DNA from: Pseudomonadales bacterium
Lineage (GTDB): Bacteria; Pseudomonadota; Gammaproteobacteria; Pseudomonadales; Azotimanducaceae
NCBI GenBank assembly: GCA_049454295.1
Contig: JBMTYG010000001.1
Coordinates: 17,454 to 81,453 of the forward strand
DNA: 64,000 nucleotides
Direction: 5' to 3'
The translations under genes and the position numbers were made by a program. A model generated the notes under the pieces. The model was not told the origin of the DNA. It did no database searches and saw only the letters and a program-made list of their open reading frames with translations. Shown here one piece after another: positions 1 through 64,000 of the stretch. Each line of letters begins with the position of its first letter. Within the stretch, counting starts at the first letter, position 1.

Positions 1-760
1 CGTTTTCCGCGGCGAGAAGGTGGCCGCCAAACACCACATCCTTGGTCGACTCCAGCGGACCGCTGCCGGCGTAGAGGTAGCCGCACAGCCCGCGCGCGCT
101 GGTCATGCGCACAAGATCGCGCCGGTAGTCGGACTTCGCGACAAGCTCGTTACTCGCCGACGGATTGAGGATCAGGTCGGCCCCCGCGAGGCAGAGGCGA
201 ATCCCGGGGGGTTCGGGTGCCCACAGGTCTTCGCAGAGCTCTATGCCGAATCGCGTCTGGCCGATATTGAAAAGCTGGTTTGCAGTGACGCGAAATGTGC
301 CAAGCACCGGGTCCGCGACTTCTTCCTCCACCCCCGCGCCGCTCGCAAACCAGCGCCGTTCGTAGAACTCATCGTGATTGGGCAGATGAATCTTCGGCAC
401 CACGCCCTGCACCCGCCCACGCGCAATGACGACCGCGGTATTGAGCAGGCGTCCGTCACGGGTCTGCCAGGGACAGCCGACGACCAGCGTGACCGATCGG
501 CTTGCGGTCGCGCGGGTCAGCTCTACGAGCGCTCGACGGACGGACTGGTGTAGGCCCGCCGAGAAGAACAAGTCCTCGCAGCTATAACCGGTGAGCGACA
601 GCTCGGGAAAGAGCACCAGGGCTGCACGGCGTTCGGCGAGCAGGTCGGCCCGCGCCAGCATGCGCTCCGCATTAGCCAACGGGTCGGCAAGCGCCAGCGC
701 CGGCGCCGAAGCGGCTACACGAATAAACCCGAGTTCACAGAAATCAATCGACGCGTCCAT
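1..760 (-). CDS. nadE: Glutamine-dependent NAD+ synthetase, N-terminal carbon-nitrogen hydrolase domain (5' part only; gene continues past the window start)
   Basis: Own minus-strand translation from ATG at 758-760: MDASIDFCELGFIRVAASAPALALADPLANAERML..LVLFPELSLTGYSCEDLF..NTAVVIARGRVQGVVPKIHLPNHDEFYERRWF..GIELCEDLW. This is collinear with the CN-hydrolase half of long-form NadE. It is absent from the ORF track because no stop lies inside the window. Track ORF 20..553(+) is its antisense shadow. Confidence 0.8.
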   Translation of the reverse strand, partial: MDASIDFCELGFIRVAASAPALALADPLANAERMLARADLLAERRAALVLFPELSLTGYSCEDLFFSAGLHQSVRRALVELTRATASRSVTLVVGCPWQTRDGRLLNTAVVIARGRVQGVVPKIHLPNHDEFYERRWFASGAGVEEEVADPVLGTFRVTANQLFNIGQTRFGIELCEDLWAPEPPGIRLCLAGADLILNPSASNELVAKSDYRRDLVRMTSARGLCGYLYAGSGPLESTKDVVFGGHLLAAEN

Positions 761-875
761 AGCGAGATTCTACTCGGGTTGCCAATGCCGCGGTCTCGCG
801 TTTTCCCGCCAAAGCCGCGAGAATCCCGTGCACAACTCTTTTTTTAACCATGAACCTGGCTTGAGAGGGGCACGC

Positions 876-1991
876 ATGAATTTCGAATTCTCTGAAGATC
901 AGAACCTGCTGCGAGAGCAGGCTCGTGGATTCCTCGCGGATCACTGCCCGACGACGGCAGTGCGCAAGGTGCTAAACGCAGAGGCCGGTCACGATGCAGA
1001 CCTCTGGCGCAAGGTTGTTGACATGGGCTGGACCGCGACGACCATCCCTGAAGAGTTCGGCGGCCTCGGGCTTGGGTACCTGGAACTCTGCGTCATCGCC
1101 GAGGAGCTCGGGCGCGCGGTTGCACCGATTCCGTTCTCCTCCTCGGTCTACCTTGCGACGGAGGCACTGCTCCTCGCAGGCTCTCAAGCGCAAAAAGAGA
1201 AGTGGCTGCCAAAACTCGCTGCGGGCGAGGTGATCGGCACCTTCGCCATGTCCGAGGGCGCTGGTCGCACCACAGCGAAGTCGCTCAAGACCCGCATTAA
1301 CGGCGGGCGCATCACCGGCACCAAAGTGCCCGTGCCGGATGCCGCGGTCGCAGGTATTGCGATCGTGCTCGCTGGGCATAGCGGCGGTGACGGCGGCACC
1401 CTGTGCTTGGTCGAGTTGGGACAAGGCACCACCATCACACCGGTCAAGACCGTCGATCCGAGTCGCGGCCATAGCGAGCTGCAGTTTGACGGCGCGGTCT
1501 GCGAAGTCCTCGGCCGAGAGGGCGAGGGGTTCGCGCTAACACAAACACTGCTTGATCGCGCCGCGGTTCCTTTCGCCTGGGAACAGGTCGGGGGCAGCGA
1601 AGCCGCGCTGGAACAAGCGCGCGCCTATGCGCTGGGACGCTACGCCTTCGGTCGCCCGATCGCTTCCTACCAGGCCATCAAGCACAAGCTCGCCAACATG
1701 TACGTCAAAAACACGCTGGCGCGCTCCAACTGCTACTACGGCGCCTGGGCGCTGAATGCGAACGCGCCGGAGCTTCCGATCGCGGCAGCCACCGCACGGG
1801 TCTCTGCCACTCAGGCGTACTACTTTGCTTCCAAGGAAAATATCCAGACCCACGGTGGCATGGGCTACACGTGGGAATTCGACTGCCAGTTCTATTATCG
1901 CCGTGCCAAGCTCTTGTCCGTTGCCATCGGCAGCGAGGCGCTGTGGCAGGACCGGCTCATCACCGCCATCGAACATAACACCGCCGCTTGA
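876..1991 (+). CDS. Acyl-CoA dehydrogenase family protein
   Basis: Track ORF 591..1991 trimmed to the internal ATG at 876 (MNFEFSEDQNLLREQARGFLADH, a typical ACAD N-terminus). The upstream 95 codons are Ser/Ala/Arg-rich and overlap the nadE 5' end and promoter region. The C-terminal GGMGYTWEFDCQFYYRRAK is ACAD-like. Confidence 0.85.
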   Translation: MNFEFSEDQNLLREQARGFLADHCPTTAVRKVLNAEAGHDADLWRKVVDMGWTATTIPEEFGGLGLGYLELCVIAEELGRAVAPIPFSSSVYLATEALLLAGSQAQKEKWLPKLAAGEVIGTFAMSEGAGRTTAKSLKTRINGGRITGTKVPVPDAAVAGIAIVLAGHSGGDGGTLCLVELGQGTTITPVKTVDPSRGHSELQFDGAVCEVLGREGEGFALTQTLLDRAAVPFAWEQVGGSEAALEQARAYALGRYAFGRPIASYQAIKHKLANMYVKNTLARSNCYYGAWALNANAPELPIAAATARVSATQAYYFASKENIQTHGGMGYTWEFDCQFYYRRAKLLSVAIGSEALWQDRLITAIEHNTAA

Positions 1992-2015
1992 AGCGCGAAC
2001 CACGAGGAGTACAGC

Positions 2016-3233
2016 ATGGATTTCAGCGATTCCCCGAAAGAAGCCGCATTCCGCGCAGAAGCGAGAGCCTGGCTTTCTGGCAACGTCCCGACAGCCGCGG
2101 AACTCGCCGGGCTCGACCCTATTGCCGCTGCCAAGCTGTGGCAGAAGCGCAAGTACGACGCGGGCTGGGCCTGCATCACCTGGCCGAAGGAATTCGGCGG
2201 CCGTGGCGCGTCAGCCATCGAGCAGGTGATCTGGAATCAGGAAGAGTCAAAGTTTCCGGGCCTGCCGGGCGGTGTGTTCAGCATTGGCCAGGGTATGGCG
2301 GCGCCAACGCTCATGACCTGGGCAAATGACGCGGACAAGGCTCGCTTCGTTCCCAAGCTTGCGAGCGGCGAGGAAATCTGGTGTCAGCTGTTCTCCGAGC
2401 CCGCCGGTGGTTCCGACCTTGCCGCGCTGCGCACGCGTGCGGTGAAAGACGGCGATGAATGGGTGATCAACGGCCAGAAAATCTGGACATCGGGCGCTCA
2501 CTACTCGGACTGGGCGATTCTCGTCGTGCGCACCGACCCCTCGGTGCCGAAGCACAAGGGCCTGACGTACTTCTATATCAACATGAAGTCCCCCGGCGTC
2601 GAAGTGAAGCCGATCAAGCAGATCTCAGGGGAGGCACACTTCAATGAGGTGTACTTCACCGATGTACGCGTGCCCGACAGCCAGCGCCTCGGGGCGGTCG
2701 GTCAGGGCTGGCAGGTCTCGCTGACCACGCTCATGAACGAGCGCGCGTCGATCGGCGCGGGCGGCTCGGCAGTGGGCTTCGACTCCGTGTTCAAGCTCGC
2801 GCGCAAGGTGGAGATCGACGATCGCCCGGCCATCGAGAATGCCTCGGTGCGCGCCAAGCTCGCGGACTGGTACTGCCAGGAATCCGGGCTTCGCTACACC
2901 GCCTACCGTACCCTGACGGCACTGTCCCGCGGGGCAATTCCTGGGCCTGAGAACTCCATCGGCAAGCTTGTCGGCGCGCCCAAGACACAGGACATGGCGT
3001 CCTTCGCCATGGATCTGTTGGAGCAAGCGGGCGCTATTCGCGATGAGTCGCTGTCCGAAGAGATGGCGCTGTTCCAGAACACGTACATGAGCATCCCGGG
3101 CCTGCGCATTGCCGGCGGCACGGACGAAATCATGGCGAACATCATCGCGGAGCGGGTGCTCGGCCTGCCTCAGGACGTGCGCGTGGACAAAGGCATTCCG
3201 TTCAGCGAGGTGCCAACCGGCGGCGCCAAGTAA
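2016..3233 (+). CDS. Acyl-CoA dehydrogenase family protein (second of a tandem pair)
   Basis: 405 aa. Starts MDFSDSPKEAAFRAEARAWL, has WCQLFSEPAGGSDLAALRTRA (the FAD/substrate loop typical of ACADs) and ends RIAGGTDEIMANIIAERVLGLP. Lies 24 nt downstream of the previous ACAD. Confidence 0.85.
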   Translation: MDFSDSPKEAAFRAEARAWLSGNVPTAAELAGLDPIAAAKLWQKRKYDAGWACITWPKEFGGRGASAIEQVIWNQEESKFPGLPGGVFSIGQGMAAPTLMTWANDADKARFVPKLASGEEIWCQLFSEPAGGSDLAALRTRAVKDGDEWVINGQKIWTSGAHYSDWAILVVRTDPSVPKHKGLTYFYINMKSPGVEVKPIKQISGEAHFNEVYFTDVRVPDSQRLGAVGQGWQVSLTTLMNERASIGAGGSAVGFDSVFKLARKVEIDDRPAIENASVRAKLADWYCQESGLRYTAYRTLTALSRGAIPGPENSIGKLVGAPKTQDMASFAMDLLEQAGAIRDESLSEEMALFQNTYMSIPGLRIAGGTDEIMANIIAERVLGLPQDVRVDKGIPFSEVPTGGAK

Positions 3234-3251
3234 GGCCAAGCCTCCCCAGAG

Positions 3252-3283
3252 ACCCGCGACCCGGTTTGCCCGGTCGCGGGTTT
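3252..3283 (+). terminator. GC-rich hairpin plus short T run between convergent genes (ACAD operon / ppx)
   Basis: acccgcgacc (3252-3261) pairs with ggtcgcgggt (3272-3281), and the inner gg/cc pair around a tttgc loop. Followed by ttt. Sits directly after the stop at 3233 and abuts the ppx stop codon at 3283-3285. Confidence 0.55.
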
Positions 3284-4881
3284 CATCGATCGACTACGTC
3301 GAACCGAATGCCCGAGGTCGCGAGCTGAGACGACTCGAGGGCCAATTCTGCGGCTGACAGTTGGTGTGATTCGCGCCACCCCTTTGGCAATACCAGCCGA
3401 AGCCAGTCCAACCCCCCTTCCGAGCCCGCCTGCAGTTCCGCTCGCGGACGAGCAACCAAACGTCCGCCCGCTATCGCGCTCCCGTTCATTGCAACGCCTG
3501 CGCTCACCAACGGCGCGGAACCCTCAACCCGTGCGCGCTCAAGAATCACCGCGAGCCGCAAAAGGGCCGTCAGCCGCCGCAGGATGAGGCGTTCCTGCGG
3601 CGGAAACCCCGCATGCGCGAGCCCTGGCAAAACCCGACGATGAGCTCGCACGAGCCCCGTGACAGCGTCCTGCTCGCGCCGACTGAAGCCAGGCATATCG
3701 GCATGACGCAGCACATACGCCGCATGCCGTTGATGACCGCGGGGGCCGACCGCAAGACCGACCTCATGCAGCGCCGCTGCGGTTCGCAGCAGGTCGCGCC
3801 AATCGGGTTGCGAGGGCAACCCGATCAGCGACCAGGGACTCGCCACCGCGTCGAAGCATGCAAGCGCGGTGGACTGCACTCGCGTCGCCTGGGTCTGATC
3901 CACCCGGAAATCGTGCTGCAAACCGCGGACCGTCAGCTCTCGCGGGTCGTTGCCGATACCCGATCCGTGCACCATCTCGTCGAGCACGCCATCCTCGAGC
4001 GCAGCGCCTACAAAGCGCATGGCGCGCAGGTCATAGCGTCGAAATATCATGTCGAGCAGTGCGACACCGGCAGGGAAGATATCAACCCGCTCTGGGGCGA
4101 GTCCGAGCATGCCCGACTCAGCGTCCCAGCGCCCTTCGAACAGCCCGCCCACCAATCGGTCGAGTCCATCCCTGGTGATGAGATCCTCTCCCCAGCCGTT
4201 CGCTGCCAGTACGGTCTGGACAGACTCAACCGTGCCCGAGGTCCCGATCACGTCGGCTGCCCGCTCCAGATCAGGCAGCGACTCCAGCGTCTTGGCCAAA
4301 TGCGCGCGCGCGGCCTCGAATCCCACCTGCACCGAGCGCGCGTCGAAAAACCCCTCGGTGAGCGATACACAACCCACCGGAGCGGACGCCAGACGCTGCG
4401 GCGCATAGCCGTCGCCCCAGGCGAACTCGGCACTGCCGCCGCCCAGATCCACCACCAGCCGACTGCGTTCGGGCCGAATCGGATCACGTCGACCCACACC
4501 GCGATAAATCAGCGCCGCTTCTTCTGCGCCGGACAACACGCGAACGGGAACGCCAAGTACATCCCGAGCAATGCTTAGCACAGGCTCAGGATCAATCGTC
4601 GTGCGCAGCGCATGCGTTCCCACAACCGCGATTCGAGAACGATCAAACGCCCGCAGTCGTTGTGCAAACCGCCCGAGACAGACTTCCGTGCGCGCGACTG
4701 ACGTCGGGTGCAGATTTCCGCCGCGCAGACCACGGGCCAGCTGGACTTTGTCCTTGATTCGTTCGATCACGCGAAGTCGAATGCCGTGAGCATCCGACTC
4801 TCCCTGTGCCACCAGCAAACGAACGCTGTTGGAGCCAAGATCCACGACCGCATACTGCTCACTCAAACCCAATCTCCCCAT
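3283..4881 (-). CDS. ppx: Exopolyphosphatase / guanosine pentaphosphate phosphohydrolase (Ppx/GppA family with C-terminal HD domain)
   Basis: 532 aa. N-terminus YAVVDLGSNSVRLLVAQ, then LVVDLGGGSAEF and IGTSGT (ASKHA-fold phosphate motifs). C-terminal LHEVGLAVGPRGHQRHAAYVLRHADMPGFSRREQ matches the HD region. I cannot separate Ppx from GppA by eye. Confidence 0.8.
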   Translation of the reverse strand: MGRLGLSEQYAVVDLGSNSVRLLVAQGESDAHGIRLRVIERIKDKVQLARGLRGGNLHPTSVARTEVCLGRFAQRLRAFDRSRIAVVGTHALRTTIDPEPVLSIARDVLGVPVRVLSGAEEAALIYRGVGRRDPIRPERSRLVVDLGGGSAEFAWGDGYAPQRLASAPVGCVSLTEGFFDARSVQVGFEAARAHLAKTLESLPDLERAADVIGTSGTVESVQTVLAANGWGEDLITRDGLDRLVGGLFEGRWDAESGMLGLAPERVDIFPAGVALLDMIFRRYDLRAMRFVGAALEDGVLDEMVHGSGIGNDPRELTVRGLQHDFRVDQTQATRVQSTALACFDAVASPWSLIGLPSQPDWRDLLRTAAALHEVGLAVGPRGHQRHAAYVLRHADMPGFSRREQDAVTGLVRAHRRVLPGLAHAGFPPQERLILRRLTALLRLAVILERARVEGSAPLVSAGVAMNGSAIAGGRLVARPRAELQAGSEGGLDWLRLVLPKGWRESHQLSAAELALESSQLATSGIRFDVVDR

Positions 4882-4977
4882 TGACCGTCGCCGACCGAAA
4901 GCTGTCCCCGAGTTGTCCCTACGCTGCCGCCATGCGCCGCCATGCTACACTTGCCGCACCGTCATCCGGAGATTGCC

Positions 4978-5304
4978 ATGGGTGCCAACATCGTCCATAC
5001 CACCGACGCTGATTTTGAGCAGGACGTGCTCAAGTCCGACAAACCAGTCCTGGTCGACTATTGGGCCGAATGGTGCGGCCCCTGCAAGATGATCGCGCCG
5101 ATCCTCGACGATATCGCGAAGGAATACGGCGATCGCGTCAAGGTCTGCAAGCTCGACATCGACGCCAATCCGGGCGTTCCGCCGCGCTACAACATTCGCG
5201 GCATTCCGACGCTCATGCTGTTCAAGAACGGCGCCGTTGAGGCGACCAAGGTCGGCGCGCTTTCTCGATCGCAGCTGGCTGCGTTCCTCGACAGCCACAT
5301 CTAG
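4978..5304 (+). CDS. trxA: Thioredoxin
   Basis: WAEWCGPCK active site. Trimmed from track ORF 4942 to ATG 4978, giving the canonical 108 aa. Immediately upstream of rho, as in other gammaproteobacteria. Confidence 0.95.
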
Positions 5305-5327
5305 CGTCGAGCGCCGATGCAACCACT

Positions 5328-5360
5328 GCAGCTGCTTGCGCGTGACTCGCAAGCAGCTGC
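5328..5360 (+). terminator. Perfect 13-bp stem-loop downstream of trxA (no U tract)
   Basis: gcagctgcttgcg (5328-5340), loop cgtgact, cgcaagcagctgc (5348-5360). Lies 24 nt after the trxA stop. It lacks a T run, so it may be a Rho-dependent or processing site rather than a classical intrinsic terminator. Confidence 0.5.
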
Positions 5361-5549
5361 GGCTTGACGGCATCTCATCACGCTACTAATCTCTGAACAA
5401 TCTGGCAGTTCCGCTGTCAGCCCGCCACGGGTTCCTGGACTCTACCCCCCATCTCGCTTGCGCCGACTCGTTGTCGCACTCGCGATATGCATGCCCCGTC
5501 GGTCGCATACGTCCGCTAACAACTCCTCCCAACTGGTCACTTAAACCTT
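5361..5549 (+). promoter_or_regulatory. rho leader region with C-rich/G-poor (rut-like) tracts
   Basis: In an otherwise G+C-balanced genome, this untranslated stretch has C>G runs: catctcatcacgctactaatctctgaacaatc, ctctaccccccatctcgcttgc, aacaactcctcccaactggtcacttaaacctt. rho is known to be autoregulated by attenuation in its leader in E. coli. Confidence 0.4.
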
Positions 5550-6809
5550 ATGAATCTGACAGATCTGAAGCGCAAGCCCGTCGGGGACCTGATCGACATG
5601 GCCCGGGAAATGGGCCTGGAAAACACCGCGCGCTCGCGCAAACAGGAAGTCATCGCCGCCATCGTGCGCAAGCTCGCGAAGGATGGGGAAGACATTTATG
5701 GCGAAGGCGCGCTTGAGATTCTGCAGGACGGCTTCGGTTTTCTGCGCTCACCGGACAGCTCTTACCTGGCTGGACCCGATGACATCTACGTATCGCCCAG
5801 CCAGATCCGCCGCTTCAACCTGCGCACCGGCGACAGCATTTCCGGCAAGATCCGCCCACCGAAAGACGGGGAACGCTACTTCGCGCTGCTGAAGGTCGAT
5901 GACATCAACTTCAGCGACCCAGGCACCAAAAAGAACAAGATCCTGTTCGAGAACCTCACGCCGCTCTTCCCCAATCGCCGGCTCAGGCTTGAGCGCGGCA
6001 ACGGCAGCACTGAGGATCTCTCTGCCCGCGTGGTCGATCTCATTGCCCCGATCGGCAAGGGTCAGCGAGCGCTGATCGTATCGCCGCCGAAAGCAGGCAA
6101 GACGCTCATGCTGCAAAACATCGCCCAATCCATCGTGGCGAACAATCCCGACGTGGTGCTGATCGTGCTGCTCATCGACGAGCGTCCGGAGGAAGTCACC
6201 GATATGCAGCGCTCGGTGCGCGGCGAGGTCGTCGCCAGCACCTTCGACGAGCCCCCGTCTCGGCACGTGCAGGTGGCTGAAATGGTGATCGAGAAGGCCA
6301 AGCGCCTCGTAGAACACCAGAAGGACGTCGTTATCCTGCTCGACTCAATCACCCGTCTGGCGCGGGCCTACAACACCATCGTGCCATCTTCAGGCAAGGT
6401 GCTGACTGGCGGCGTGGACGCGAATGCGCTTGAACGGCCGAAGCGGTTTTTCGGCGCAGCGCGCAACATCGAGGAGGGCGGCAGCCTGACCATCGTCGCG
6501 ACCGCGCTCATCGACACCGGCTCGAAGATGGACGAGGTCATCTACGAAGAATTCAAGGGCACCGGCAACATGGAACTGCATCTCGAGCGCAAGATCGCCG
6601 AGAAGCGCGTGTACCCCGCCATCAATATCCGTCGCTCGGCAACCCGCCGCGAAGAGTTGCTGATGACCGAAGAGGAACTCCAGCGCGTGTGGATCCTGCG
6701 CAAACTCCTGCATGAAATGGACGACGTCGCCGCCATCGAATTCCTGATCGACAAACTGCGCACGACGAAGACCAACGACGAGTTCTTCGCCTCAATGCGG
6801 GGGCGGTGA
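5550..6809 (+). CDS. rho: Transcription termination factor Rho
   Basis: 419 aa. [25 protein letters not shown] (N-terminal insertion/RNA-binding domain), Walker [35 protein letters not shown]. Confidence 0.98.
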
Positions 6810-6816
6810 AAGGGCG

Positions 6817-7542
6817 GTGACGGGCGCACTCTATCGCTGCCCAATCATTCGTTGTGTCCCGCTCTCAAACGCCCGGGCGCACGCGCAACCCGTGCAGGAG
6901 ATCGTGCTCGAAGCCCCACCCGGCTTCAGTTTTCGCGCCGGCCAATATACGCAGGTCGAACACCTGGAGGGACTGATACCGCTGTCCATCGCGAGCGGAC
7001 CCCGACGGCTGCCGACAGTCACCCTGCACTACCGCTCGCTGCCGGGCGTTCCCGCCGCCCGCTGGATGGACGAACTGCTCGCTGCAGGCGAACCGCTGTT
7101 GCTGCATGCGCCCGCCGGCGACGTTCAAATGCCAGACGATTCTCGACAGCCGATCGTGATGATCGTCGGCGGCACCGGCATCACCCAAGCATTAGCCGTT
7201 CTGGACGAGCTTGCCGACGTGTCCGAACGGGCGCCCGTCGACCTGCTGTGGTGTGCGGACAGCGCCGACGACTTCTACTGCCGCCACGCGCTCGACGCCC
7301 TCGCTGCGTCGTGGCTACGCGTGCGCTACACCGTCGACCCACGCCGCACGCCGGACAACAGCGCTTTCGAACAGGCGCGCAATCTGCTGTCCAGCTCAAG
7401 AACCGCCGCCCCATGGATTCTGCTCGGCGGAAGTCCGAGCTTCGTTTACGCCATGGACGAAGCGCTGGCGACTGTCACACGAACGCCGCGCCATGCCGAT
7501 GCCTTCAGCTGGGCACCGCGACCGACCCAGCAGGATCTCTGA
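6817..7542 (+). CDS. FNR-type FAD/NAD(P)-binding oxidoreductase (Fre-like flavin reductase family)
   Basis: 241 aa, GTG start. FRAGQYTQV, IPLSIAS (in place of RxYS) and MIVGGTGITQALAVL (NAD(P)-binding GGxGxxP-like). No Fe-S cysteine cluster. Confidence 0.6.
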   Translation: MTGALYRCPIIRCVPLSNARAHAQPVQEIVLEAPPGFSFRAGQYTQVEHLEGLIPLSIASGPRRLPTVTLHYRSLPGVPAARWMDELLAAGEPLLLHAPAGDVQMPDDSRQPIVMIVGGTGITQALAVLDELADVSERAPVDLLWCADSADDFYCRHALDALAASWLRVRYTVDPRRTPDNSAFEQARNLLSSSRTAAPWILLGGSPSFVYAMDEALATVTRTPRHADAFSWAPRPTQQDL

Positions 7543-7552
7543 AACACTTGCG

Positions 7553-8734
7553 TCAGATCGGGCCCGTTCGGGGCAGCGGCAGGTCCGGCAGTGCCCCTGC
7601 CGCGTTGACCATCAGCTCGATCCCCCGCGCGTCGCCCAACGCATGGATCAGACGACCCAGTTCCGCCTGAGCGACGGGACCCGCGTTGCGCCGGACCGCC
7701 ATTTCCAGATGCTCCCGCGCCTCCGCCCAGCGCCCGGCTCGCAATGCCAGCCGACCGAGGGTGAGGAATAACGCCGGCTCGTCAGCGTGCTTTTCAACCC
7801 AGCCTTCCGCCCGCTTCAGCGTGCGCAGAGGGTCTGGCACTGGAATCTCGCCGAGCGCTGCAACGAGTGCCACCGACCAGTGATGCGACAGCGCCTCCTG
7901 AACGACCGACTCCGCGCGATCCGGATGCTCACGCCCTGCGCGCCGGACGTAGTCCAGCACCAGCTCGGTCCGCGAACGCAGATCTTTCGTTAGGCTCTGC
8001 CAGCGCGATTCGAGGCCTTCGCCGGACAGTTGCGCAAGCTCACCGCGCACGCTCGCAACCTGCAGCTGATCGATTTCCGCCTCACCCCGGGGGCGCGCCT
8101 GCCGCAGTGCGGGCAAGAGCGTCGCGAACGCCGCGCTGTCTCCCATGCCCACCGCCGCGCGGGCACAGAGCCAGAGAGCCTCTCTGTGCGGCGGCGAGCG
8201 CTCGGCTAGCGGTCGCACGAGGGACGCCACCGCTCCCCACTCGCCGCGGTCAGCCTGCTGCCGCGCGAGCGCAAAGGCGGCGGCGTCCGCATCCTGTTGC
8301 GTCGCCTGCTCGATCAGGCGTGCCTCCGCCGCGCCGTCCTCACCCAGTCGGGCGGCCAGTGCAGCGCCAAGCCAGGGCAACGGACCACTACGCTTGCCGG
8401 CTGCGCCCTCAAAACGGGCGCGGGCTTCGCGCCAGTCACCCTGCACCAGGGCTGCAAGCCCGCCCTGCATGAGTCCGATCGTCCTGTTTCTGCGGCGTTC
8501 CGCCTGCCAGCGCAGGATCCCTCGCGGACCGCGACGCAACCCACCCAGCACGAACAACAGCGCGCGCAGACCCACATAGGCGGATGCGAGCAAGACAAGC
8601 GCCACCCAGAGCCCCGTTTCCAGCGCGCGATTGCCATAGACGACGAGCACATAGCCCGGATCGCGGGCAACGAGAATCCCGACCAGCGCGCCAATGACGA
8701 GCAGGACCAGGAGTTTCAACAGACGCACACTCAT
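7553..8734 (-). CDS. hemY: HemY-like haem-biosynthesis-associated TPR membrane protein
   Basis: 393 aa. N-terminal TM plus DPGYVLVVYGNRALETGLWVALVLL (HemY_N signature), Ala/Leu-rich TPR body. Last gene of a hemC-D-X-Y string. Confidence 0.85.
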   Translation of the reverse strand: MSVRLLKLLVLLVIGALVGILVARDPGYVLVVYGNRALETGLWVALVLLASAYVGLRALLFVLGGLRRGPRGILRWQAERRRNRTIGLMQGGLAALVQGDWREARARFEGAAGKRSGPLPWLGAALAARLGEDGAAEARLIEQATQQDADAAAFALARQQADRGEWGAVASLVRPLAERSPPHREALWLCARAAVGMGDSAAFATLLPALRQARPRGEAEIDQLQVASVRGELAQLSGEGLESRWQSLTKDLRSRTELVLDYVRRAGREHPDRAESVVQEALSHHWSVALVAALGEIPVPDPLRTLKRAEGWVEKHADEPALFLTLGRLALRAGRWAEAREHLEMAVRRNAGPVAQAELGRLIHALGDARGIELMVNAAGALPDLPLPRTGPI

Positions 8735-58709: not shown

Positions 58710-60718
58710 ACGTCCTCCTCGCTGCTGTCGCGGAACGGTGCCTGCGGGCACTGCACGTAGCGCAAGCGCACGTCGCGCGGTGTCAGCGTGTCCGCACGTT
58801 GCGCCCTGGGGGCATTGCCCACAGAGCCGTTGAGCGCAATGCCACCGTTGTGTGCGCCCAGAAACGCGATCATGTCGTCCTGATCGACGCCATCGCCCGA
58901 TACGCCAATACCGCCAACCAGCGTTGTGCCGCGATAGAGCGGTACCCCGCCAGGAAAGATCTGCAGCCCGTTGGCGAGCTGACGGCTATTGGTGGTCTGC
59001 GTTGCAACCAGTGACGCTGCCAGTTCGATGCCCGCGCAGTTCGTACCTACATCCGGAGTGCCTACCCCCGCGACAAACAGCACATGCTGGAGGATTGCGT
59101 TGTGCGCCAGATCGAGCTGCAATCCGGTCGAGAACGCGCTCCACTCGGCAAACGGCTTTGAGAGCGGGCCGTGTGGTTCGCTCTGCAGACCGTCCGGATA
59201 GAACGGACGCGAAAGATTGGCGATGCTGCGCTCGGCAAAAGCGATCGCGCCATCGCCAAGCAGCGTGGGCATGCCGGTGAAGGCGCGCAGGTCAGTGATG
59301 TAGGTGCCGATCGGGCTTGGCGTGAAACTGACGGCGTCAGAAGCCGTGGTCAAATACTGCGCCGCCGGCAGACCCGTTAGAAATTCCGCTGCGGTCGGGG
59401 CCGAAAACAGTGTCGCTGACCGCGCCTTCTGCAACGAAACGTCGGCACCAAACACGGGCGCGTCACGCGTGCGCACCATGCCAAGAATTTCCCCCCGGGT
59501 GTCGACTACGCTGATGGTAACCCGCGCCTGACTGCCGAGCGGACGACGGATCTGTGCGCGGGCACGATTCGCGACTGCAAGCGCCTCACGCAGGAGAACG
59601 CGCACCTCATTCTCCGAAAGCCCGCCATCGGTCCCCGCACGGGGCGGAAACCGGGGCTGATCGCTCGCATCAACAAAGATAAACGCGTCCTGCCCCGGGA
59701 AATCGACCGTGTCAGGTCTAATCCCCGAAGCCGGGTCGCCAAACGACACGCCCTGACGCAGGTTACCGTCCGTGTAGCCCGGCACGGGAACCAGCCCACC
59801 ATCCGCCGCAGTGAGCGTGCTGAACCCCGGCGCGGACGCCGGATCTCGCGCCAGATTGGAAAATTCAACATCGCTGAAGCGGAACGTCTTGCCGTCGACC
59901 GTAATCCGGTCCGCGCGTCGGTCCGGCGGTGCGGCAAACCCAAAGGTCGCGGCGGTGGCAATGAGTTCGTCCACATCGCGGTCGCTATCGGCGATAAATT
60001 TATCAAGGCTGTAGCGTCCATCTGCGATAGCACCGACGCCACCCACCACGGTGCCGTTTTTATAGAGCGGCATGCCACCGGGATCTGCAGACAGCCCAAG
60101 CGGCGACCGCTGCGGACCGACAGTGACCCCTAGTCCATCGGCGCGCTGCATGAAATCCGAGCAGGCAAGCTGGCTGAACTGGACGCCAAACAGCGGGCCC
60201 CCTGCCTGATCGCGCTCACCGGGGTTGAAGTGCTCCTGCACAATCTGGCCTGCCGTGCGGGTGGTGAAGGCGTTGCCCTCGCTCGAGAGATAAGCACCCG
60301 TGACCGCCTTGGCAATCGCTGCCTGATGGTCGAGCGCGAACGGCAGTCCCGGCTGCGGCAGTGCGATGCCCTCGAGCCCACCCGACACCGTGGCGCGCCC
60401 CTCGTCATCCGTCGCCGTCGCGATGAGCACAGGCAGCGGATCGGCGCCCATACGATAGACACCGAGGACATTACCCACCCGGTCAACGACCGCGAGCGTA
60501 GCCCGGACATCGCGCGCCTTTGCCTCAGCCACCCCCTGAGCCAGTACGCGCTCCACTTCGGCGACGGTCAGCAGCGTCGAGGTGTCGGCACAGGACCCGC
60601 TGCACCCTCCGCTCGGCGGCTGGCTGGTCCCGGTGGTGCTGCCGCTGCCACCTCCGCCACCGCAGCCGGCTAGCGCCAGAACGGCAATCAGGGCGGCAAA
60701 AAAGGGAGTTCGCATCAC
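58694..60718 (-). CDS. Lipoprotein with two GlcG/HbpS-like (DUF336, haem-binding/haem-degrading type) domains
   Basis: Lipobox AVLALAGCGGGGGSG. Domain 1: LTVAEVERVLAQGVAEAKARDVRATLAVVDRVGNVLGVYRMG..GGMPLYKNGTVVGGVGAIADG. Domain 2: LSENEVRVLLREALAVANRA..ARVTISVVDTRGEILGMVRTRDAPVFGADVSLQKARSATLFS..GGVPLYRGTTLVGGIGVSGDGVDQDDMIA. Confidence 0.7.
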   Translation of the reverse strand: MMRTPFFAALIAVLALAGCGGGGGSGSTTGTSQPPSGGCSGSCADTSTLLTVAEVERVLAQGVAEAKARDVRATLAVVDRVGNVLGVYRMGADPLPVLIATATDDEGRATVSGGLEGIALPQPGLPFALDHQAAIAKAVTGAYLSSEGNAFTTRTAGQIVQEHFNPGERDQAGGPLFGVQFSQLACSDFMQRADGLGVTVGPQRSPLGLSADPGGMPLYKNGTVVGGVGAIADGRYSLDKFIADSDRDVDELIATAATFGFAAPPDRRADRITVDGKTFRFSDVEFSNLARDPASAPGFSTLTAADGGLVPVPGYTDGNLRQGVSFGDPASGIRPDTVDFPGQDAFIFVDASDQPRFPPRAGTDGGLSENEVRVLLREALAVANRARAQIRRPLGSQARVTISVVDTRGEILGMVRTRDAPVFGADVSLQKARSATLFSAPTAAEFLTGLPAAQYLTTASDAVSFTPSPIGTYITDLRAFTGMPTLLGDGAIAFAERSIANLSRPFYPDGLQSEPHGPLSKPFAEWSAFSTGLQLDLAHNAILQHVLFVAGVGTPDVGTNCAGIELAASLVATQTTNSRQLANGLQIFPGGVPLYRGTTLVGGIGVSGDGVDQDDMIAFLGAHNGGIALNGSVGNAPRAQRADTLTPRDVRLRYVQCPQAPFRDSSEEDVCVNK

Positions 60719-62391
60719 GGGTCGGTCTCCGTCGCGACGGTGGGGTGGAATTCATGGCAATCGATGCAGTCGACGGGGATCAGCTGCGGCTGATGGCGAT
60801 CGCCATGACAACTCACGCATTGCTGAATATCCGGCATCAGCACGTCGCTGCTCGCGGTCGACGTATCCGCTGCATGGCAGTCGAGGCACGCATCGTCCCC
60901 GGCGGCGTCTTGCTGGGTCAGATGCGCGGCGTGATCGAAACGCGCGCTGCGGAAAAAGTCCGGGGTTAACCGAACCGGCGCTACCTGATAACGCCCGAGC
61001 AGATCATCCGTATCGTGCACCGCGACCTGGTGACAAGTGACACAGCCCCGCACGGTAAACTGGGTTTCTGCCTCGCGCGCGGTGCGCTCTCGAGCACAGA
61101 TATACGCCGGACCGGTGCAGGTCTCTGCCTGACGCGCATGATCGGGCAACCGACGCCAGGTTCGCTTTGGCAGGTCGAGCGTTGGGTCCGCGAACACGCG
61201 CATGTAATGACCTTCCATCACCAGCAGCGCTTCGCTGGGATTCCCGTGCGGCAATTCGCGATCAGGCGCCGTGCGATCGAACTTGAGATCATGGCAGTCG
61301 CGGCAGTGCTGCTCCATACGAATGGGCGCGAAATGTTCGCCATCGGGCTGCAGGGTGTGACAATCGGCGCACACTAGCGCAGCCCCGGTCGTGAGGTTTT
61401 GCACCTTGCCCGGATCGAGATGCACGTCGTGCGGGTACTTGAGGTTTGACGGATCCACTGCGTCTGGTAATGGGCTCGACTGCCAGGTCCAATCGTAGGC
61501 GAAGCCTGTGCCCCGCCGCACGTGACTGCTGGTGAGCAGATCAACGGCAAACGGTGCGTGGTCCGCCTCGGAGAAACCGGCCACCGCCGCGAGCCGATTG
61601 TCCGGCCAATCCGGTTCGGCGTGACAGTCGGTGCAGAGCGTATCCGCGCGGATCACCAGATGCGGCGGCGTGTTGTGTTCCTTGTGACAGGACGCGCAGC
61701 GGACGGTATCGAGCCCCACATGGCTGTTGAGCGGCTCCGGCGCGTGGTTCGCCATCGCGCCATGGCAGGTCGTGCAGGCAGTGTCCGGCACTCGTTCGAA
61801 CGGCTTCACGTGACAGGCCTTGCAATCATCGCCCACCGCGACCGCGTGCGCAGGCAGCAATGGACCGCTAGACCAGACATCATCAGTGCTCCACCAGGGA
61901 ATCGCGTCGATATCCACTGCGAAAGGAAGCACGAGTCCAAAGAGCAGCACGATGCCCGCCAAGATCCACGCCGGGCGCCGACGGCCAAGCCGGGTCTGCT
62001 CGAGATCTACGGAGAACGCTGCCTCGAACGCTGCGGGTGAAACTTCTTTCTGCGGCTCTACCTCCAGCGCCCCGGCGAATCCCGCAGGGGGCTTTAGCAC
62101 CCGCACGCGCGCGCCGGCGAGCTCAAGCGTCTGCCCTGGTTCAAGGCGACCGCTGCCCACTGCCGCCCCGTCAATCGCAACGGCGCTGCCACGCACGCAG
62201 CGAACGTCGAAGGCCACCCCAGACGGCGTAAGCGTCACATGCTGCGGCGCCACGTCGGCGCCATACACCTGAATCACCGCGTCGACCGAACTGCCCAGCG
62301 TGACTGCAGGGACTGTGACCTCCCGATCGCGAAATACCGCGCTGGGTGTGCCGGGAAGACCTGAGATGAGTTCGCGCAGAAGAATTTGCAC
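60715..62391 (-). CDS. Inner-membrane-anchored decahaem c-type cytochrome (c3/c7-like repeats) with a cytoplasmic FHA-like N-terminal domain
   Basis: Residues 20-100: FRDREVTVPAVTLGSSVDAVIQVYGADVAPQHVTLTPSGVAFDVRCVRGSAVAIDGAAVGSGRLEPGQTLELAGARVRVL (FHA-fold pattern). RLGRRRP followed by TM AWILAGIVLLFGLVLPFAV. Ten CxxCH: CKACH, CTTCH, CASCH, CTDCH, CADCH, CRDCH, CVTCH, CLDCH, CVSCH, CIDCH. Confidence 0.8.
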   Translation of the reverse strand: MQILLRELISGLPGTPSAVFRDREVTVPAVTLGSSVDAVIQVYGADVAPQHVTLTPSGVAFDVRCVRGSAVAIDGAAVGSGRLEPGQTLELAGARVRVLKPPAGFAGALEVEPQKEVSPAAFEAAFSVDLEQTRLGRRRPAWILAGIVLLFGLVLPFAVDIDAIPWWSTDDVWSSGPLLPAHAVAVGDDCKACHVKPFERVPDTACTTCHGAMANHAPEPLNSHVGLDTVRCASCHKEHNTPPHLVIRADTLCTDCHAEPDWPDNRLAAVAGFSEADHAPFAVDLLTSSHVRRGTGFAYDWTWQSSPLPDAVDPSNLKYPHDVHLDPGKVQNLTTGAALVCADCHTLQPDGEHFAPIRMEQHCRDCHDLKFDRTAPDRELPHGNPSEALLVMEGHYMRVFADPTLDLPKRTWRRLPDHARQAETCTGPAYICARERTAREAETQFTVRGCVTCHQVAVHDTDDLLGRYQVAPVRLTPDFFRSARFDHAAHLTQQDAAGDDACLDCHAADTSTASSDVLMPDIQQCVSCHGDRHQPQLIPVDCIDCHEFHPTVATETDP

Positions 62392-62400
62392 AGCGCGCCC

Positions 62401-63270
62401 CTACCAATAAATGAAGGTGGAGAGGATGTGCACGATAAGTGCCACGAGGGTACCGATAGTGAGCGGCACATGCAGGTATAACCACGCCTTGAGCCAGCCC
62501 TGCAGGCGAATATCGGAACGCAGCCGGCGCAACACGGCCTGACGCCGGCAGAGCACCGCCAGCAGGTCTTGCAGCACGCCAACCTCCGCGCGTCGATCCG
62601 CGCGCGTCAGCCGGCCTGCGACCAGGTCGATCACCGGCGCCTGGTCGATATTTGGCTGGACACCGCCCTCAAGGGTCTCGAACGCGGAGCGGTCGCGTGC
62701 AGAGAGCTGCGCCGCGACACCGCCGCCTAAGGTGGTGCGTGCAATACTCGATTGCACGGCGAGCTGCACGTCGGCACTGGAACGAGCAGCCAGCTCGCGT
62801 CCCTTGCGATTCAGCTCATACAATTCCGCAAACAGCTCCGAGCGCCCATGCCCGGCGCGGAGCGTCGCAATCTGTAGCGGATAATTGAGGTAACCATACA
62901 GCCCGACGATGCCGCTCACGATGACGATAGACATGAGCGCCCACGCGAGCGTGTGAATATTCCAACCGAACTGGAATCCACAGTGCAGGGTCGCAAGCAC
63001 CCAAACCGCGAGACCCAGGTAGACATGAGCCGAGGTCCAACCCTGCACGGTACCAGAGCGCGCCCGATAGCTGCGCTTGCGAATTCCAAGCCAGGCGAGC
63101 CAGACAATCAGAAGCGCCGCCCAGGTGCCAAGGACATAGCCTTGCCAGGTACCTCCGTTCGGCGGCTCAGTAGTCTGGTGCGAAACATAAATACCAATGC
63201 CGCCCGCAATGCTGAACAGCCCCCACCAGAGATACCGATAGCTACGGTATCGGAGCAGATTAGCGAACAT
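62401..63270 (-). CDS. Five-TM membrane protein with two His-x13-His pairs (putative di-haem b, ferric-reductase-domain-like)
   Basis: Trimmed to ATG 63270 (289 aa). TM3 SAHVYLGLAVWVLATLHCG (H82/H96) and TM5 WLYLHVPLTIGTLVALIVHIL (H267/H281), each with exactly 13 intervening residues. About 130-aa soluble loop between TM4 and TM5. Confidence 0.65.
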   Translation of the reverse strand: MFANLLRYRSYRYLWWGLFSIAGGIGIYVSHQTTEPPNGGTWQGYVLGTWAALLIVWLAWLGIRKRSYRARSGTVQGWTSAHVYLGLAVWVLATLHCGFQFGWNIHTLAWALMSIVIVSGIVGLYGYLNYPLQIATLRAGHGRSELFAELYELNRKGRELAARSSADVQLAVQSSIARTTLGGGVAAQLSARDRSAFETLEGGVQPNIDQAPVIDLVAGRLTRADRRAEVGVLQDLLAVLCRRQAVLRRLRSDIRLQGWLKAWLYLHVPLTIGTLVALIVHILSTFIYW

Positions 63271-64000
63271 CGGACTGCAGCAGCCGAATGAACTGTTCAG
63301 GGTTGACGCGCTGGGCCGCACCCGTGGGGCACGCGCGCACACATGCGTAGCCCAATGGGTCATTCACGCAAGCGTCGCACTTGACCGCCCGTTTGCCCTG
63401 TTCTTTCGACCGCGCGTCCGGCGTGAATGAAGCCGGCTCGCCCGGACCCGGCCCGCGGCCGAACAAAAGCCATTGCAGCAGACCCGGCTTCTGCGGCGCA
63501 GCATAGGAGAGACGAATCACATCGTAGGGGCAGTTCGCTTCACAGTTGCCACAGCCAATGCAGGTATCAGCGATATAGACCTGCCCGTCTGCGGCACGGG
63601 AGATGGCGTTGGGCGGACAATCCTTCATGCAATGCGGATGCTCGCAGTGACGACAGGCGATCGGCACATGAATATTGGCGAAGGTCTTGCCCGCCGCGCG
63701 ATCCAGGCGCGAGAGCCCCTCATGGGTCTCGGCGCAGGCGCGCTCGCAGTTGTCGCAGCCGATACAGAGCGTCTCGTCAATCAGGAGGGTATCCGTTGCT
63801 TCACCGAGCCCTTCCTCGAGCAGGAAGCTCATGATGCCGCTGCTCTCCGGGCGCACCTCCATCTGCGTATTGTCCGTCAGCCGCGCCTGCGCCCGAGCCT
63901 GCAGCGCTTCGATGTTGGCGGACGGCAAATTCATCAGCGCAAGGAACTCCTTGCGGGATAGTTCGATGGTTTCCGTCGCCACCGTCGCGAGCGCGGTTTC
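63260..64000 (-). CDS. Ferredoxin-type protein with four [4Fe-4S]-like Cys groups (3' part; the reading frame stays open to the window end)
   Basis: CIGCDNCERAC, CRHCEHPHCMKDCP, CIGCGNCEANCP, CDACVND..CVRACP (DmsB/NrfC-like arrangement). The track start at 63982 is an internal GTG, and the frame continues upstream (..ETALATVATETIELSRKEFLALMN), so a further N-terminal domain lies outside the window. Confidence 0.75.
   Translation of the reverse strand, partial: ETALATVATETIELSRKEFLALMNLPSANIEALQARAQARLTDNTQMEVRPESSGIMSFLLEEGLGEATDTLLIDETLCIGCDNCERACAETHEGLSRLDRAAGKTFANIHVPIACRHCEHPHCMKDCPPNAISRAADGQVYIADTCIGCGNCEANCPYDVIRLSYAAPQKPGLLQWLLFGRGPGPGEPASFTPDARSKEQGKRAVKCDACVNDPLGYACVRACPTGAAQRVNPEQFIRLLQSDVR

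Follow-up and report, generated by a model that had tools for sequence, protein, structure and literature searches.

Background

In the PCC3 and PCC4 gene clusters the inner-membrane proteins (IMPs) have five transmembrane (TM) helices, an SGxxG motif on TM4 and two Wx3Hx13H motifs, one on TM3 and one on TM5 (He et al. 2017, PMC5566968). The same authors likened these proteins to the ferric reductase domain (FRD) and to cytochrome b, proposed that they hold two b haems, and favoured a quinone-active role with inward flow from Fe(II). Here we analyze a gene of similar appearance in a stretch of 64,000 nucleotides from a Pseudomonadales bacterium (assembly GCA_049454295.1, contig JBMTYG010000001.1, positions 17,454 to 81,453 of the forward strand), called the window below; unless a locus is named, coordinates refer to this stretch. 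The gene occupies positions 62401 to 63270 of the minus strand and encodes a predicted di-haem b inner-membrane protein of 289 aa, a prediction that draws on the open reading frame (ORF), its translation, more than 2,500 homologues and an AlphaFold2 (AF2) model. We consider it probable that this protein is a wire of two b haems, which would lead electrons originating from NAD(P)H from an iron-sulfur chain via a haem at H82/H267 and a haem at H96/H281 to a decahaem cytochrome.

The hypothesis of two b haems was published in 2017 (He et al., PMC5566968) and the interpretation is not new; the value of the present work lies in stronger evidence and a sharper model rather than in discovery. Our results support the view that the window protein would be a further case of the PCC3/PCC4-type kind predicted at that time, a kind which is itself still only predicted. 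In PCC4 subgroup II a pfam13247 iron-sulfur gene precedes the IMP and a decahaem cytochrome is present, PCC3 and PCC4 subgroup I clusters are without the iron-sulfur gene, and the PCC3 and PCC4 IMPs are not alignable with each other (PMC5566968). The window protein follows the published signature residue for residue (W78x3H82x13H96, S119-G120-I-V-G123 and W263x3H267x13H281). By the cluster criterion of He et al. the locus is of the same kind, with PF13247 upstream, a decahaem cytochrome downstream, and beyond it a 644-aa protein with a weak porin match and an LVIVD cytochrome.

Two further descriptions come close. The ptdABCDEFG operon encodes a 'ferric reductase-like' protein, PtdF, between a protein with cyclic nucleotide (cNMP)-binding and 4Fe-4S domains and a decahaem cytochrome (Elbon, Stewart & Glass 2024, 10.1101/2023.11.21.568154). 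For Ferrigenium straubiae a preprint (10.64898/2026.01.22.701106) reports a trio of a [4Fe-4S] protein, a five-TM protein and an FHA-nonahaem cytochrome (NHC), which have no signal peptides and were expressed in all four conditions tested; the five-TM protein showed no InterPro match and no redox motif, and a stabilising scaffold was proposed. A paper on Uet/LVIVD of the Tenderiales proved unrelated to this system.

The crossing of the inner membrane is the least understood step in most predicted conduits for extracellular electron transfer. To our knowledge, the known inner-membrane routes (CymA, ImcH, CbcL and NetBCD) all run via quinones. If the two-haem reading is true, pyridine nucleotide would be connected directly with the cell surface, by a module simple enough to be tested or transplanted.

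Two histidine pairs on two membrane helices

The reading frame runs from an ATG at 63270 to a TAG at 62401-62403 (289 codons plus stop). Seven histidines are found in the translation, at residues 31, 82, 96, 106, 141, 267 and 281; H82/H96 and H267/H281 both form i,i+14 pairs (His-x13-His), for which the codons were individually verified. For 7 His randomly placed over 289 aa, the chance of at least two i,i+14 pairs is P = 0.0066. A scan of the window's own 3.37-Mb genome, covering 10,075 open frames of at least 120 aa, found two separate hydrophobic helices with His-x13-His in this gene and in a paralogue on contig C35 only.

The AF2 model, built from 70 homologues (pLDDT 86.8, pTM 0.74), contains helices at residues 12-29, 42-64, 75-97, 105-138 and 227-288, and the hydropathy segments agree with five TM helices. 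TM1 (residues 12-29, 63184..63237, all parts being on the minus strand) is an additional helix lying against TM3, as seen in AF2 and in the couplings 21-88, 21-91 and 28-99 of the direct coupling analysis (DCA) given below. TM2 (residues 42-64, 63079..63147) carries a small-residue pair, G48-x13-G62, recognized from its conservation among representatives and its likeness to helix A of bc1 cytochrome b. TM3 (residues 75-97, 62980..63048) carries W78-x3-H82-x13-H96, with the codons of H82 at 63025-63027 and of H96 at 62983-62985. A conserved GWNxHT stretch (with N104 and H106) leads into TM4, which spans the membrane with residues 105-130 and holds S119-G120-x-x-G123 (together 62881..62961); its helix (105-138) extends beyond the membrane. 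TM5 (residues 259-289, 62404..62496) is formed by the final ~30 residues of helix 227-288 and carries W263-x3-H267-x13-H281 (codons at 62470-62472 for H267 and 62428-62430 for H281). The original prediction had put H82/H96 in one TM helix and H267/H281 in another with 13 residues between the partners of each pair, and translation, hydropathy and AF2 all confirm this placement, on TM3 and TM5. In both helices the His pairs are centred on the hydrophobic span (midpoints 89 for TM3 and 274 for TM5).

Lysine and arginine are limited to the N-terminus, the segment between TM4 and TM5, and the loop joining TM2 to TM3, where R64 K65 R66 are invariant or almost invariant; the TM1-TM2 and TM3-TM4 loops contain none. 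By the positive-inside rule this distribution gives an N-in, C-out protein, and natural N-terminal fusions (see below) likewise place the N-terminus in the cytoplasm. Both TM3 and TM5 then cross the membrane in the direction of the periplasm, which places H82 and H267 in the inner leaflet and H96 and H281 in the outer one.

The insert of ~130 aa between TM4 and TM5, already noticed in the original prediction as a soluble part, comprises residues ~131-258 (62497..62880) and is placed in the cytoplasm by the positive-inside rule and by the natural N-terminal fusions. According to AF2 it is mostly helical with one beta-hairpin; it contains 19 K+R and passes into TM5 as an unbroken helix, the TM5 helix reaching ~30 residues into the insert. 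Every aligned homologue has such an insert despite poor conservation in sequence and length; C164 and C241 are common across homologues, short of invariant. The insert could, for example, serve to dock the iron-sulfur domain, or else the FHA domain belonging to the decahaem protein.

An alternative ORF of 320 aa starting at 63363 was rejected: the extension is contained within the upstream gene, and its start is unsupported because homologues, mostly ~275-300 aa long, align from M32 of the longer frame. With the ATG at 63270, the end of the upstream gene (with its stop) and the start of the membrane-protein gene share 11 nt.

Conservation across the family and register of the helices

The family is large: we obtained 2,536 matches in 90% clusters and, at E <= 1e-3, 2,585 cluster representatives at 50% identity. 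It occurs at a minimum of 591 loci among species-representative genomes and in ~4% of the sampled Pseudomonadota, and UniRef names some of the homologues 'Ferric reductase like transmembrane component' or 'Iron reductase'. Cultured species among the carriers include Steroidobacter flavus, Kineobactrum salinum, Marinobacter salexigens, Pseudohalioglobus lutimaris, Parahaliea mediterranea and Qipengyuania marisflavi. In alignments of 35 and 70 homologues (40-82% identity) H82, H96, H106, H267 and H281 are invariant. Of the best 150 representatives, 115 cover the positions, and every one of these 115 (with 31-48% identity to our protein) holds the four histidines of the two pairs, so that the conservation which the original prediction made a test of its reading extends down to 31% identity. 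Even the 25 most divergent representatives (25-34% pairwise identity) retain 12 invariant columns, four of which are H82, H96, H267 and H281; in the same alignment the insert drifts freely in sequence and length.

Counts per position among the representatives show the same for the residues around the histidines. TM2 keeps G48 (138/138) and G62 (136/140, the remainder being S or A), TM3 keeps W78 (137/143), H82 (143/144) and H96 (149/149), TM4 keeps H106 (148/149), S119 (128/148, plus 17 T), G120 (147/147) and G123 (146/147), and TM5 keeps W263 (119/122), H267 (120/120) and H281 (120/120). Consequently, each of the helices TM2 to TM5 has a conserved i,i+14 pair: G48/G62, H82/H96, H106/G120 and H267/H281, respectively.

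The periplasmic GWNxHT stretch at the start of TM4 deserves separate mention. N104 (146/149) and H106 are nearly as invariant as the putative ligands, while T or S occupies position 107 in 135 of the 148 representatives (codons of N104 to H106 at 62953-62961, of T107 at 62950-62952). With H106, a third histidine lies level with the proposed outer haem. It may replace one of the putative ligands, make contact with a propionate or a docking partner, or contribute to a quinone site.

Mean-field DCA was performed on 423 sequences using gap-free TM columns (Meff ~215). A first run over the full length had been swamped by gap artefacts at the N-terminus and in the insert, which is why the analysis was repeated on these columns. 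The strongest inter-helix couplings include those between TM2 and TM3 (61-79, 51-92, 56-87), TM3 and TM4 (94-110, 87-121, 90-114, 79-129), TM4 and TM5 (112-277, 115-270, 105-280, 109-274), TM5 and TM2 (59-271, 49-286, 55-274) and TM3 and TM5 (93-278, 94-278). The series are consistent in register and, noisy but coherent, describe a TM2-TM3-TM4-TM5 ring with TM3 and TM5 on the diagonal. The TM3-TM5 register of i to i+185 equals the offset from H82 to H267 and that from H96 to H281. TM3 and TM5 run parallel, and this noisy but coherent register would bring the two His pairs to the same levels.

The three-gene core and its natural fusions

Upstream lies the gene for a protein of 848 aa, of which the 3' part is at 63260..64000 on the minus strand; it continues beyond the end of the window (L003:2714-5260). 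Domain annotation gives an N-terminal FAD/NAD(P) Rossmann domain (Pyr_redox_2/3), two cNMP-binding domains and, at the C-terminus, a four-motif [4Fe-4S] ferredoxin domain of the DmsB/NrfC/FdnH/NarH type; a signal peptide is absent. Fer4_11 (PF13247) matches the protein, and the iron-sulfur module also matches the FDH-beta, NarH, DmsB, NrfC, HmcB and DsrO models, all below their cut-offs. Judged by its sequence, the module is of the four-cluster type that docks on membrane subunits. The FAD/NAD(P) fold and the cNMP domains imply that electrons originate from NAD(P)H and that cNMP has a regulatory role. The 'multi-[4Fe-4S] protein' of the original prediction is thus present as a module with four Cys motifs, though this module makes up merely the C-terminal part of a FAD/NAD(P)/cNMP protein.

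Downstream, at 60715..62391 on the minus strand, a protein of 558 aa is encoded with ten CxxCH motifs and one TM anchor (~residues 141-163). Its N-terminal domain is cytoplasmic, and homologues have FHA/Yop-YscD_cpl matches. The position of the membrane-protein gene between a cytoplasmic multi-[4Fe-4S] gene and an anchored decahaem gene, as originally described, therefore holds. It is also conserved: among 51 related loci with sufficient flank, the large iron-sulfur protein is found upstream in 51 and a protein with 9-10 haems downstream in 50. The iron-sulfur neighbour measures ~800-900 aa and has FAD/NAD(P), two cNMP and 4Fe-4S domains wherever annotated. The same three genes occur together in Alphaproteobacteria (Qipengyuania), next to a homologue of 31% identity that has other outer-membrane genes, and in the paralogous cluster on contig C35. 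Farther downstream in the window follow a two-domain HbpS-like lipoprotein, the 644-aa probable barrel, which has a weak match to a porin model, and an LVIVD multihaem cytochrome of 1266 aa.

In three genomes of one genus, the match to our protein is located inside open frames of 1120-1146 aa. Two of these were annotated as ORFs for single-chain fusions of the flavo-cNMP-iron-sulfur protein and the five-TM protein, with 1135 aa (L153:1380-4787, plus strand) and 1118 aa (L154:1350-4706, plus strand); the third genome has an open frame of 1125 aa at the same match. The two annotated fusions keep the five TM helices and the five invariant histidines, and at the L153 locus the gene for an FHA-type multihaem cytochrome comes after the fusion gene. 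A library representative of 1110 aa has a similar make-up. An origin of the P0358 fusion as an artefact of a lost stop is excluded by the frames in three genomes, with full ORFs in two. The fusions have an extra ~35-40 aa inserted in the cytoplasmic TM2-TM3 loop. The joining with the flavo-iron-sulfur protein argues that the iron-sulfur chain acts directly at the cytoplasmic face of the membrane protein, and the natural single chains provide ready-made constructs for biochemistry.

Comparison with curated families and structures

Several results weigh against a di-haem protein acting as proposed here. Pfam and NCBIfam searches with the window protein gave nothing at E <= 0.01, and a profile search of the PDB with the 70-sequence alignment yielded only chance matches on the insert (E >= 1). 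Foldseek on an AlphaFold model, a check suggested in the original prediction, turned out negative: with the full-length AF2 model no PDB match was found at E < 1, and cytochrome b or FRD entries are absent among the 50 best matches listed, the long helices drawing coiled-coil, TRP-channel and chemoreceptor entries, a negative that does not decide on the likeness of the fold to FRD or cytochrome b. With hhalign the probability was <2% against the genome's two genuine PF01292 (cytochrome b561) proteins, 0.2% against 30 MsrQ-type FRD proteins and <=1.9% against 30 bc1 cytochromes b (both sets of 30 from genomes of the same class); this method has little power here, because the control of FRD against cytochrome b failed too. 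Ni_hydr_CYTB (PF01292) matches 65 of 70 family members, all of them sub-threshold (best E = 2.6e-6, 29.0 bits against a cut-off of 30.1). In addition, the fifth invariant histidine, H106, makes the outer ligand pair ambiguous, the patch N104/H106/T107 is a candidate quinone site, and the His-His geometry depends on topology and on noisy DCA (Meff ~215). Finally, in the literature we found no biochemical test or demonstrated haem for any member of the family.

The sub-threshold matches themselves are restricted to di-haem families, with single helices covered, and on TM5 they land on the last di-His helix of Ni_hydr_CYTB. For the window protein the match to Ni_hydr_CYTB has E = 0.38 and 11 bits (same cut-off), and weak matches to DUF4405 are seen in 24 of the 70 members. 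Ferric_reduct (PF01794, cut-off 28 bits) leaves the window protein unmatched and gives zero matches across its own genome; in the family it matches 6 of 70 members, at E >= 0.012. Cytochrome_B (PF00033) likewise gave no Pfam match at its curated threshold.

The MsrQ comparison adds to this picture. The 30 MsrQ-type proteins have three invariant histidines only and a His-x12-His pair, which makes MsrQ a poorer analogue than was originally assumed. Of the original assignment to FRD/NOX/MsrQ-type proteins, which was based on the His spacing, the di-haem-like function is supported, whereas membership of the family fails at the thresholds. Since the Ferric_reduct, Ni_hydr_CYTB and Cytochrome_B thresholds were all missed, we regard the protein as one that would work like a di-haem b cytochrome, not as an FRD/NOX/MsrQ member; the results support such a function for a protein outside every curated family.

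Proposed electron path and alternative explanations

As proposed, the protein would be the inner-membrane electron carrier of a multi-haem conduit that spans the envelope. Its TM2-TM5 core would form a cytochrome-b-like four-helix bundle with two b-type haems, one on the cytoplasmic side with H82 (TM3) and H267 (TM5) as ligands, and one on the periplasmic side, ~21 Å further out, with H96 (TM3) and H281 (TM5). The haem planes could be accommodated by small residues of the flanking helices, G48 at the outer level and G62 together with G120/G123 at the inner one, and N104/H106 would be next to the outer haem. NAD(P)H would deliver electrons to the 848-aa cytoplasmic protein, with its FAD and its four [4Fe-4S] clusters; from these they would move over the two membrane haems to the periplasmic ten-haem domain of the downstream anchored cytochrome, and from there to the outer-membrane barrel and the large propeller cytochrome. 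The refutation tests of the original prediction that could be run came out in favour of the putative transmembrane di-haem b protein. We take as shown the topology, the invariance and register of the His and Gly pairs, the conserved core of three genes and the fusion with the flavo-iron-sulfur protein; haem binding itself, as well as the partnering of the histidines, the direction of flow and the independence from quinones, we infer.

Outward flow would be redox-downhill and aided by the membrane potential, which would make the system an electron outlet like NOX or ferric reductase and not an energy-conserving step. Flow the other way, with Fe(II) as donor and NAD(P)+ as acceptor, would have to work against both the redox and the membrane potential.

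A more specific version can be offered tentatively, as something possible rather than expected: a quinone-independent 'split NOX' with a c-haem extension, made up of the flavo-cNMP-iron-sulfur protein, the di-haem b protein and the FHA-anchored decahaem cytochrome. In such a system NAD(P)H electrons would go straight across the inner membrane into the haem wire of the periplasm and outer membrane, bypassing the respiratory chain. The outlet might be gated by cyclic nucleotide and by Ser/Thr phosphorylation, in largely aerobic marine and soil Proteobacteria, with extracellular Fe(III), Mn(IV), humic substances or O2 (giving extracellular superoxide) as possible acceptors.

The strongest competitor keeps the two haems, and lets the protein act via the quinone pool: it would oxidise quinol or reduce quinone at a site close to one of the haems, for instance at the N104/H106/T107 patch by the outer haem, with decahaem exchange as in CymA, CbcL, NarI and FdnI. 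The flavo-iron-sulfur protein would then provide an additional input of a regulatory or auxiliary kind. FdnH/FdnI and NarH/NarI, the best studied among the systems that pair a four-cluster ferredoxin with a di-haem b protein, are quinone enzymes, and the upstream module matches their ferredoxin family. The highly conserved polar patch of N104, H106 and T/S107 is situated at the periplasmic membrane surface. Furthermore, a quinone-active cytochrome b was suggested by He et al. 2017, and their PCC3 and PCC4 subgroup I clusters do without an iron-sulfur gene (PMC5566968). Nonetheless, the iron-sulfur flavoprotein is adjacent in all 51 loci and fused in one genus, which argues that the cytoplasmic haem faces an iron-sulfur chain and not a quinone. 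The chain from NAD(P)H via FAD, iron-sulfur clusters and b haems to c haems is complete without a quinone, and no known quinone-site motif was identified, though no search specific to such motifs was made. Overall, we consider action through the quinone pool unlikely.

Very unlikely, in our opinion, is a membrane scaffold free of cofactors that ties the iron-sulfur protein and the FHA-decahaem cytochrome together. Such a stabilising role was proposed for the Ferrigenium protein, which lacks an InterPro match (10.64898/2026.01.22.701106), the Pfam, PDB and Foldseek comparisons are without significant matches, and the large helical cytoplasmic insert of the model could serve as a docking platform. 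Yet a scaffold accounts neither for the invariance of four buried histidines across >100 divergent clusters, in which the insert drifts, nor for the i,i+14 Gly/His pattern in common with cytochrome b. Without a redox centre in the membrane, moreover, the full bilayer would separate the iron-sulfur clusters from the periplasmic haems, a distance too great for electrons to be transferred. The evidence presented here would correct the view that the Ferrigenium protein, which looks homologous, is a scaffold without redox activity.

Very unlikely as well, finally, is a non-haem role of the TM histidines, whether they provide a path for metal ions or protons or make the protein a sensor of redox state or of metals that signals through the TM5 helix to the cNMP and FHA modules: the TM5 helix does have 62 residues and extends into the cytoplasm (AF2), the highest Foldseek TM-scores (0.31-0.33) include the sensor four-helix bundles McpS, PilJ and TorS, and the operon is rich in regulatory domains (cNMP-binding, FHA), but the His pairs lie 21 Å apart in opposite leaflets on in-register helices, and so make up two sites and not one ion site, an output domain is absent, the Foldseek matches are insignificant (E > 1) and the insert is poorly conserved. 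Both the scaffold and the non-haem role fit the conservation pattern poorly.

Further features of the cluster and the genome

A paralogous second copy of the cluster is present in the same genome on contig C35 (~1-8000), with ORFs of 833, 293, 562, 706 and at least 294 aa in the gene order of the window cluster. Its membrane protein (gene at L004:4605-5483, minus strand) is 44% identical to ours and has the identical double His-x13-His motif.

The outer parts of the system appear exchangeable around the fixed three-gene core, as illustrated by two loci. In Qipengyuania marisflavi (L088) the genes for the LVIVD cytochrome, the barrel and the HbpS-like protein are on the opposite strand, past a metallophosphatase gene. 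On the P0350 contig the outer genes are replaced by those for c554-like and MtrC-like cytochromes and a 521-aa protein.

Directly upstream of the operon, on the same strand, are a cryptochrome/photolyase-related gene (DPRP and FAD_binding_7; L003:6124-7638, minus strand) and a gene for an NmrA/epimerase-like NAD(P)-binding protein (L003:5405-6124, minus strand).

Comparison with known systems

The window protein and the PCC3/PCC4 IMPs are both ~300 aa long and belong to a cluster of a porin and multihaem cytochromes; their likeness is known by the published signature, not by aligned sequences. The outer parts differ: PCC4 has periplasmic cytochromes with 4, 5 and 10 haems, whereas the window cluster has the two-domain HbpS-like lipoprotein, the 644-aa barrel, the 1266-aa LVIVD-propeller decahaem cytochrome and a c554-like cytochrome. 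The iron-sulfur gene differs as well, being here a large fusion with NAD(P)H/FAD and cNMP domains. The ptd operon has the three-gene order of the window, a likeness that goes by description; in ptd, however, the FAD/NAD(P) oxidoreductase is encoded on its own (PtdC), and the remaining cytochromes are unlike those of the window. Also by description, the Ferrigenium trio is the same as ours, and the conserved His-x13-His pairs of the window family argue for haem where the preprint saw a scaffold.

The ferric reductase domain (PF01794; NOX, FRE, MsrQ) resembles the proposed arrangement in its two stacked haems between TM3 and TM5, its cytoplasmic NAD(P)H/FAD feed and its outward flow. In the window protein the His pairs are on TM3 and TM5 as in this domain, but there are five TM helices instead of six and a 128-aa insert before TM5. 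Furthermore, the domain works without iron-sulfur clusters in between and passes its electrons directly to O2, Fe(III) or MsrP.

A parallel in the arrangement of the bundle is given by bc1 cytochrome b (PF00033). In our 30 sequences G41/G55 are on helix A, H90/H104 on helix B, G125/G139 on helix C and H191/H206 on helix D. This alternation of Gly pairs and His pairs in a four-helix bundle at two haem levels is mirrored by TM2-TM5, except that one of the Gly positions is a histidine (H106) in the window protein. Owing to its Gly pairs, cytochrome b can pack the haem planes on helices A and C. Different from the window protein, cytochrome b has eight TM helices and two quinone sites, and its bundle is oppositely oriented in the membrane.

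The function proposed here, in which an iron-sulfur chain is joined via two b haems to a partner across the membrane, has precedents in FdnH/FdnI and NarH/NarI. In the Hmc and Tmc complexes of sulfate reducers, a periplasmic multihaem cytochrome c is combined with a membrane cytochrome b and a cytoplasmic iron-sulfur protein. FdnI, NarI and the b subunits of Hmc, Tmc and DsrMKJOP, however, are either quinone enzymes or proteins of the NarI type, in which the His spacings and the use of helices are different, and the cytoplasmic partners in these systems are HdrD-like proteins or molybdoenzymes, where the window cluster has an NAD(P)H flavoprotein.

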